A DNA stretch of 64,000 nt from Mizuhopecten yessoensis (lineage: Eukaryota), in the NCBI RefSeq assembly GCF_002113885.1, contig NW_018405533.1:136313-200312 (forward strand), written 5' to 3'. Of the stretch, positions 22,525-22,913 are shown one piece after another. The first letter of the stretch is position 1. Each line of letters begins with the position of its first letter. The notes below the pieces were generated by a model that did not search any database, was not told the origin of the DNA, and saw only the letters and a program-made list of their open reading frames with translations. The position numbers and the translations under genes are program-made.

Positions 22525-22913
22525 TATAAAAGGAGAAAGAGAAAGGCAGCGGCCAGACCGGGATTCAAACCCAGAACCATCCGAACTCTAGTCGGACGCT
22601 CTACCAACTGAGCTACCTGGTCGCCAGCGAACGACTCAGTCTAGTTGGGCTACATTCTTCCCTCCTTTTTCTACGTCTTCGTCCCCGAAGACAACAGTAT
22701 TTACAGCCCAGGTTCGGGTATCCCTTTGCTATCCTATGCATTAATCAAGTAATTGAAACAAGGGTTGGCAAGCTCCCCACGTTTGTAGCAGGGGAAAGAG
22801 AAAAGCACCGTTCAGATCTGGATTCGAACCCGGGCACCTCTGAAATATATAGAGACGCTGTACCAATTGAGTTACCTGGTCGCTGAAGATCGACCCAGTC
22901 CAGTTTCGCTACA
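22525..22913 (-). mobile_element. TRIM (miniature LTR retrotransposon) with a tRNA-like sequence inside both LTRs (Helenus-like)
   Basis: Two 130-bp direct repeats (22525-22654 and 22784-22913; the latter has TGTAG...CTACA ends). PBS-like TGGGGAGCTTGCCA at 22779-22766. PPT AGAAAAAGGAGGGAAGAA at 22672-22655. Each LTR holds A-box/B-box tRNA-like sequence. Confidence 0.82.

Follow-up and report, generated by a model that had tools for sequence, protein, structure and literature searches.

An old copy of a Helenus-like TRIM with tRNA-derived LTRs in the bivalve Mizuhopecten yessoensis, and a hairpin before its PPT

The window analysed here is a stretch of 64,000 nucleotides (64 kb) of Mizuhopecten yessoensis DNA (contig NW_018405533.1, positions 136,313 to 200,312). 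At 22525-22913 it contains a 389-bp element on the minus strand, composed of a 130-bp LTR, a 129-bp interior with a PBS and a PPT, and a second 130-bp LTR. This 130 + 129 + 130 layout and the minus-strand order LTR-PBS-PPT-LTR had been proposed in an earlier note made from the letters alone, and coordinates and sequence agree with it. The features of the element are the following.

22784..22913, minus strand: 5' LTR, 130 bp, TG...CA, 95/130 identical to the 3' LTR
22808..22881, minus strand: decayed tRNA-derived segment of the 5' LTR, no cloverleaf call, in register with the segment of the 3' LTR
22863..22874, minus strand: motif of the 5' LTR that resembles box A, with A in place of G10 (sequence; box definition according to Kojima 2024, PMC10886601)
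22820..22830, minus strand: intact box B of the 5' LTR (sequence)
22801..22804, minus strand: run of four T directly behind the tRNA-like segment of the 5' LTR, a candidate Pol III stop signal (sequence)
22655..22783, minus strand: non-coding interior, 129 bp (sequence)
22766..22779, minus strand: PBS, pairing at 13/14 positions with the 3' end (CCA included) of the host tRNA-Arg(ACG)
22674..22693, minus strand: hairpin with an 8-bp stem and a GGGA loop, loop start 31 nt before the 3' LTR (MFE and centroid folds)
22655..22672, minus strand: PPT, 18 nt, abutting the 3' LTR (sequence)
22525..22654, minus strand: 3' LTR, 130 bp, TG...TA, the CA being decayed (sequence)
22550..22622, minus strand: tRNA-like cloverleaf of the 3' LTR; the anticodon is AGA, the variable arm is short, box A is intact and box B has C56T (ARAGORN, Rfam)

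The 95 identical positions of the LTRs were counted over their full length without gaps and correspond to a K2P distance of 0.34; direct-repeat detection in the window reports the pair with 74% identity over 124 nt. A second copy of the element was not found in the 64-kb window. The flanks are ataac and atggc, as the earlier note had given them when it called the TSD unclear, and 0/4 TSD positions match at this copy.

ARAGORN detects a single tRNA in the window, a tRNA-Ser(aga) at 22549-22622 in the left (3') LTR, and Rfam model RF00005 matches the same LTR with 54.9 bits (E 4.5e-9, cut-off 29). The proposed AGA anticodon on a body with a short variable arm is thereby corroborated for this LTR. 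The corresponding segment of the right (5') LTR was missed by ARAGORN and also by Rfam even at E≤10; both the D-stem and the acceptor stem of this segment are broken, ATA stands at its anticodon position, and its box B is intact. Of the cloverleaf that had been suggested for each LTR, the left one stands and the right one does not, as only a homologous tRNA-derived segment is left there. Both LTRs of the window are thus tRNA-derived, but a cloverleaf is present in one alone, which itself lacks C56.

AGA is the family state of the anticodon (69/96 family LTRs), and 18 of the 96 LTRs are called as tRNAs by ARAGORN, 14 of them as Ser(aga). The suspicion that such elements would be mis-annotated as tRNA genes is therefore correct for part of the family and, in the window, for one LTR instead of two; this Helenus family inflates tRNA-Ser(AGA) counts in automatic annotation. 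Real tRNA-Ser has a long variable arm. What sets the left LTR apart from a functional tRNA-Ser is its short arm, T56, the A2.C71 pair and the lack of any excess conservation in comparison with a duplicate of the locus. Anticodon-isotype disagreement has been described for Helenus, related families of which read AGT (Thr) (Kojima 2024, PMC10886601). The 'serine' anticodon AGA is likely the result of drift in a Thr-like tRNA body that was kept as a promoter and does not represent a working tRNA.

The duplicate just mentioned stems from a segmental duplication of at least 8 kb: window positions 15008-23456, including the element, are present on another contig (L095/L096) with 78-86% identity, and the insertion therefore predates the duplication. 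This comparison bears on the alternative that the left LTR was co-opted to encode a functional tRNA, or an RNA resembling one, by which a serine codon would be translated into a different amino acid. Such a function could be read from the best-formed cloverleaf, with its fully paired anticodon stem and an Rfam score well above cut-off, yet this cloverleaf has an A2.C71 mismatch in the acceptor stem and a T in place of the invariant C56 of box B, and its fold has a z-score of only -0.58. The tRNA-like parts are 0.84 and 0.88 identical to those of the duplicate (left: 64/73), compared with 0.93 and 0.86 for the flanks and 0.89 for the interior; they are no better kept than their surroundings and hence give no sign of selection as tRNA. 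In the duplicate the arms of the left-LTR tRNA are broken. We consider a co-opted tRNA gene highly improbable. The contig with the duplicate has a further LTR nearby.

A DNA search of the animal's own genome gave 2,738 candidates; all of the 40 that were scored span most of the element, with identities of 75-78% except for one match at 85% and the window copy itself. The first 20 nt of the LTR have 441 exact matches in the genome (control: 0), some of them within short tandem arrays. The LTRs of the family thus number at least hundreds and, given its divergence, probably thousands. From these similarity and exact-motif searches, which do not provide a random sample, 48 distinct full-length copies were delimited; loci that overlap or duplicate one another were excluded, as were the 16 that belong to one satellite. 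TG and CA ends are retained in 27 of the 48 copies. The 4-bp TSD is perfect in nine of these 27, where swapped flanks predict 0.38, and within one mismatch in 18, where they predict 2.9; a perfect TSD of 5 or 6 bp occurs in none of the 27. The earlier note had proposed to look for further LTR-interior-LTR copies, for the length of their TSD and for conservation of PBS and PPT. All three speak for its reading: full-length copies with a 4-bp TSD exist, the PBS is complementary at 14/14 positions in many of them, and the PPT is kept in the family.

It had also been considered that copies elsewhere might occur as single units with A-rich tails, as expected of SINEs. Loci anchored on the LTR start alone were inspected, using 23 of 30 fetched loci (the other 7 belong to one array and were left out). 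Read by eye, ten of these LTRs lie behind a PPT, four lie before a PBS and one is a solo LTR with a perfect TSD; the others look like solo LTRs or are ambiguous. None of the 23 has an A-tail. Two tRNA-derived SINEs or tRNA pseudogenes in chance tandem would account for a left repeat that scores as a tRNA and for a window copy without a TSD, but a unit of two LTRs with a fixed interior, PBS, PPT and 4-bp TSD recurs throughout the genome and A-tails are absent. This explanation is already refuted and deserves practically no credence; the Helenus-like reading of the locus stands.

The median LTR-LTR identity is 0.81 in copies with the PBS type of the window element (Arg type, n = 34) and 0.83 in a second type (His type, n = 14), with a maximum of 0.94, and the family is therefore old. 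The window copy, with an LTR identity of 0.73, is among the most decayed. Since this value is below the median of its type and a TSD is missing, the window copy may be a recombinant of two copies. Its state of decay suggests an old relic that is unlikely to be active.

Helenus elements were described as TRIMs with tRNA-derived LTRs, a PBS, a PPT and, in animals, a 4-bp TSD; animal Helenus is tied to Gypsy and fungal Helenus to Copia, and 51 families are reported from pteriomorph bivalves (Kojima 2024, PMC10886601). The size range given there for animal Helenus is 311-1263 bp, and the promoter boxes are TRGCY and YGG (box A) and GGTTC (box B). The element of the window is a short, non-coding two-LTR element with tRNA-derived LTRs, PBS and PPT, its family has the 4-bp TSD, and its LTRs are related to published ones. 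They are collinear without any gap with the LTRs of Helenus-1_ArIr (130 bp) and Helenus-2_PeMa (129 bp) (PMC10886601, Data S1). An ungapped count by hand gave 93/130 and 99/130 identical positions (72% and 76%) for the two window LTRs against Helenus-1_ArIr. A tRNA-like body, a hairpin before the PPT, the PPT itself and a 4-bp TSD are common to the window element and both published families. This collinearity argues for an animal Helenus and against a SINE pair or tRNA genes. The original proposal of a Helenus-like TRIM is thus supported by multi-copy LTR-interior-LTR units with 4-bp TSDs, a conserved PBS and PPT, the lack of A-tails and LTRs collinear with those of scallop Helenus. Taken together, the element very probably belongs to a known kind, the animal Helenus TRIM, in which it represents a new subfamily; the copy itself is old and likely inactive.

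The subfamily is distinguished from its published relatives by an interior of 122-129 bp with a PBS for tRNA-Arg(ACG), in contrast to 90-93 bp and a Lys PBS in Helenus-1_ArIr and Helenus-2_PeMa (PMC10886601), and by AGA at the anticodon position, where these two have AGT. The oyster families Helenus-2_CGi, -2C_CGi and -1_SaGl, which are primed by tRNA-His, have by eye a similar interior plan (His-type PBS followed by ACCC, a GAACCTGGG-like motif, a hairpin and the PPT), and the anticodon loop of Helenus-2_CGi contains AGA as in the window family; the 5' part of their LTRs and their interior sequence are unlike those of the window family. Cassandra and Ajax (TRIMp3) also combine a promoter derived from a small RNA in the LTR with tandem arrays, but theirs stems from 5S rRNA and not from a tRNA, and Ajax has a TSD of 5 bp instead of 4 bp. 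By eye, Ajax-1_NGe has the same hairpin before the PPT. Another bivalve TRIM, biv-TRIM (Satovic 2019, PMC6934838), resembles the window family in its solo repeats and tandem arrays. Identity with biv-TRIM was rejected, as its repeats of 202-218 bp, its interior of 77-80 bp and the lack of a clear PBS are unlike the window element. The class, the host group and the mis-annotation as tRNA are already published; one more bivalve Helenus lineage, its tRNA-Arg-ACG primer, the use of three primers in one lineage and a hairpin shared with Gypsy are modest additions.

Over 14 nt, the family PBS can pair with the 3' end (CCA included) of the host tRNA-Arg(ACG); 14/14 positions match in many copies and 13/14 in the window copy. 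The corresponding tRNA 3'-end pattern has 18 matches in the genome, and all nine loci that were checked with ARAGORN are tRNA-Arg(ACG). The likeness to a tRNA-Arg 3' end that had been noted at the outset can thus be assigned to a multi-copy tRNA-Arg(ACG) of the host. The exact Arg PBS junction occurs 16 times in the genome. On the same LTR, a His-like PBS, which has one extra base compared with the host tRNA-His, is found at 96 exact junctions, 16 of them in one satellite. A third subfamily of the same LTR lineage has an interior of 88-90 bp and a Lys-like PBS, with the primer assigned from Fig. S2 of Kojima 2024 (PMC10886601); a strict pattern for its junction had no match in the genome, and it was then found by DNA search. 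Eight of 19 copies have a perfect 4-bp TSD. By eye, this Lys-type subfamily looks like the direct counterpart of Helenus-1_ArIr and Helenus-2_PeMa.

One LTR lineage is thus combined with three primers, Arg, His-like and Lys-like. LTR identities between types (0.81-0.85) are inside the range within types (0.80-0.86), and the interior behind the PBS is 0.82 identical between Arg and His copies, compared with 0.79 among Arg copies. As judged from these values, essentially only the PBS separates the Arg type from the His type, which points to a primer swap within one lineage. For bivalves, Kojima 2024 (PMC10886601) lists Lys, His, Ile, Pro, Glu and Ser primers, and for wasps Arg-TCT; a string search of the supplement gave 0 matches to the Arg-ACG PBS core. 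Arg-ACG is therefore absent from these lists; the subfamily may already be deposited in Repbase or Dfam.

Several rearranged loci were observed besides the regular copies. A satellite with a 54-bp unit (G000:C588, ~103-111 kb; L063-L078) consists of the LTR end and the His-like PBS, with 16 copies in L072. In a unit on G000:C101 (L202/L114) of the Lys type, the second LTR leads into the first part of a His-type PBS, which suggests that two subfamilies are joined in a chimera. At L211 (G000:C1665, ~54.1-55.0 kb), L212 and L226, the Lys-type subfamily forms tandem LTR-interior-LTR arrays; neighbouring LTRs in L211 are 99% identical, and the arrangement is that of Cassandra arrays. At G000:C337:927634-928121 (L134-L141), an array with 39-bp spacing is derived from the 5' end of the LTR, and RNA reads contain a comparable short repeat made of the LTR start.

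The element was likely propagated by the enzymes of an autonomous Gypsy element, with the host tRNA-Arg(ACG) as primer, and the steps can be formulated as a model. In the 5' LTR, Pol III would initiate at the tRNA-like segment by means of boxes A and B, pass the T-run of this LTR and terminate at the corresponding T-run of the 3' LTR. The predicted RNA would have a length of ~340 nt with the tRNA-like segment as terminal repeat. It would then be packaged by an autonomous Gypsy helper, for which the hairpin before the PPT is a candidate recognition signal. Minus-strand synthesis would be primed by the host tRNA-Arg(ACG) and plus-strand synthesis by the PPT, and the Gypsy integrase would produce the 4-bp TSD. 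A difficulty for the model is that a T-run is present behind the tRNA-like segment in both window LTRs, so that read-through in the 5' LTR is demanded. Within the family, a run of at least four T in the last 30 nt of the LTR is found in 34/68 Arg-type and 22/28 His-type LTRs, where it would be expected to halt Pol III in the 5' LTR.

Pol III transcription of the family is predicted from sequence features such as the boxes. Alternatively, the same Helenus element could have obtained its template RNA from Pol II read-through or from tandem arrays, and the tRNA-like part would be a passenger from an old SINE insertion without promoter function. Four RNA runs were inspected. At 95% likeness the window locus has 33 reads, nearly all of them partial, running into unlike sequence and coming from other copies. 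With reads accepted at 85% likeness, a better-kept copy has 404-859 reads per run, of which 94-98% run on into unlike sequence; a common start or end of reads was not seen on this copy in these long-RNA libraries, and reads also cover the beginning of the LTR, ahead of the site where Pol III is predicted to initiate. The reads look like passive co-transcription of many family copies. This resemblance is in agreement with the Pol II alternative, as are the T-runs behind the tRNA-like segment in many LTRs, the tandem arrays of L211, L212 and L226 and the statement in Kojima 2024 (PMC10886601) that the Pol III function is unvalidated. However, reads from long-RNA libraries of an old family say little on its former transcription. 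Boxes A and B have moreover been kept across Helenus families over long times (PMC10886601), and in the present family box A is the best-kept region of the LTR (0.93, compared with 0.85-0.86 for leader and tail), with box B (0.87) no better conserved than the rest of the LTR. We regard the passenger explanation as rather unlikely. Among TRIMp3 elements, Pol III transcripts have been shown for Cassandra only (Kojima 2024, PMC10886601).

A helper with the same primer was sought in the genome. No intact autonomous element with the Arg-ACG PBS turned up in the searches that follow. A 16-nt Arg-ACG PBS had 0 matches. With a 15-nt PBS that is not followed by A, six matches were obtained, five of them Helenus copies and one a decayed element with an unlike LTR (L092/L093, G000:C76724, ~385-390.5 kb, minus strand). 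The latter has broken frames and a weak integrase match (E 0.00093, under cut-off), and its LTR has few relatives in the genome; it is a possible relic of a helper lineage. Of 150 listed integrase loci 30 were fetched, and 21 gave an LTR pair, two of them doubtful at 73-74% identity. Neither an Arg-ACG nor a His PBS was present among these 21 loci, several of which are without a readable PBS and three of which have N gaps at this position. A Lys-type PBS was found in one of them.

The hairpin at 22674-22693 is the sole helix of note in both the MFE and the centroid fold of the interior, and folding of the complete interior does not surpass that of shuffled sequences (z -0.63). A stem of at least five pairs is kept in 25 of the 48 decayed family copies (3.3 expected). 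The hairpin is not confined to the TRIMs. Twelve of the 30 autonomous loci have a clean PPT-LTR edge (nine were left out for an unclear edge and nine are without a close LTR pair), and in four of the 12 a stem of at least five pairs encloses the loop AGGA or TGGA at a distance of 27-29 nt from the LTR, compared with 0.35 expected. Two more have stems of four pairs, six have no stem, and one of the left-out elements shows a 6-pair stem. The stem sequence varies among these elements, which have the Gypsy order with the RT (YLDD or YIDD) before the integrase, and in most of them the hairpin is positioned behind the end of the long ORF.

Six 8-nt hairpin cores were also located in the Kojima 2024 data (PMC10886601), with 45 occurrences in a search that misses strings split at line ends. 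Among the 28 places displayed, 21 are just before a PPT, with differing stems, and seven are in LTRs. The first place of each core falls after the fungal records, and none is therefore fungal. A hairpin is not mentioned in the text of that paper, which calls the basis of TRIM helper dependence unknown, and a literature search, which covers papers outside subscription, retrieved no description of a hairpin before the PPT, nor did passages of PMC13570524 and PMC7215508. Two described signals were set aside: the stem-loop of Sire elements (PMC3601003) contains the PPT and differs in this respect, and the TCTT motif (PMC10085805) is not the hairpin in question. A weak Rfam match of an L31 leader over the hairpin (E 0.89, under cut-off) was put down to chance. 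Similar palindromes occur at the 3' ends of plant Gypsy elements.

A hairpin that is common to Gypsy-type elements, varies in its stem and is absent from the Copia-linked fungal Helenus records is a candidate signal by which a helper recognises a TRIM. We tentatively propose, as a possibility that falls short of being probable, that the stem with a purine loop (RGGN) ~30 nt before the 3' LTR is a Gypsy cis signal for RNA packaging or plus-strand priming, and that animal Helenus and Ajax keep it to hitch-hike. The hairpin could also act as DNA and not as RNA. If the proposal is true, it would answer a question raised by Kojima, namely what keeps a TRIM bound to its helper when its LTRs are unrelated. 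It would also make clear how primers (Lys, His, Arg), and with them perhaps helpers, could be exchanged within one LTR lineage. As a candidate for a simple marker by which TRIMs could be assigned to Gypsy helpers, the hairpin is the addition most worth following.

Candidate core motifs resembling those of hammerhead ribozymes can be seen by eye in the wasp sequences Helenus-2_SyJa-LTR and Helenus-2_SyUm-LTR (PMC10886601, Data S1). Such motifs would link both families to retrozymes.

Elsewhere in the window, broken frames at 29495-33651 and 42846-43223 look by eye like Polinton-type and LINE fragments; Pfam gave no match above cut-off over these two regions, with a weak BIR match (E 3.6e-4) under cut-off. 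Positions 43580-46648 and 46650-49718 form a direct duplication of 3,069 bp with 100% identity and one base between the copies, which is likely an assembly artefact. Tandem repeat arrays are located at 8557-9456 (36-bp period), 39301-40713 and 41888-42439.
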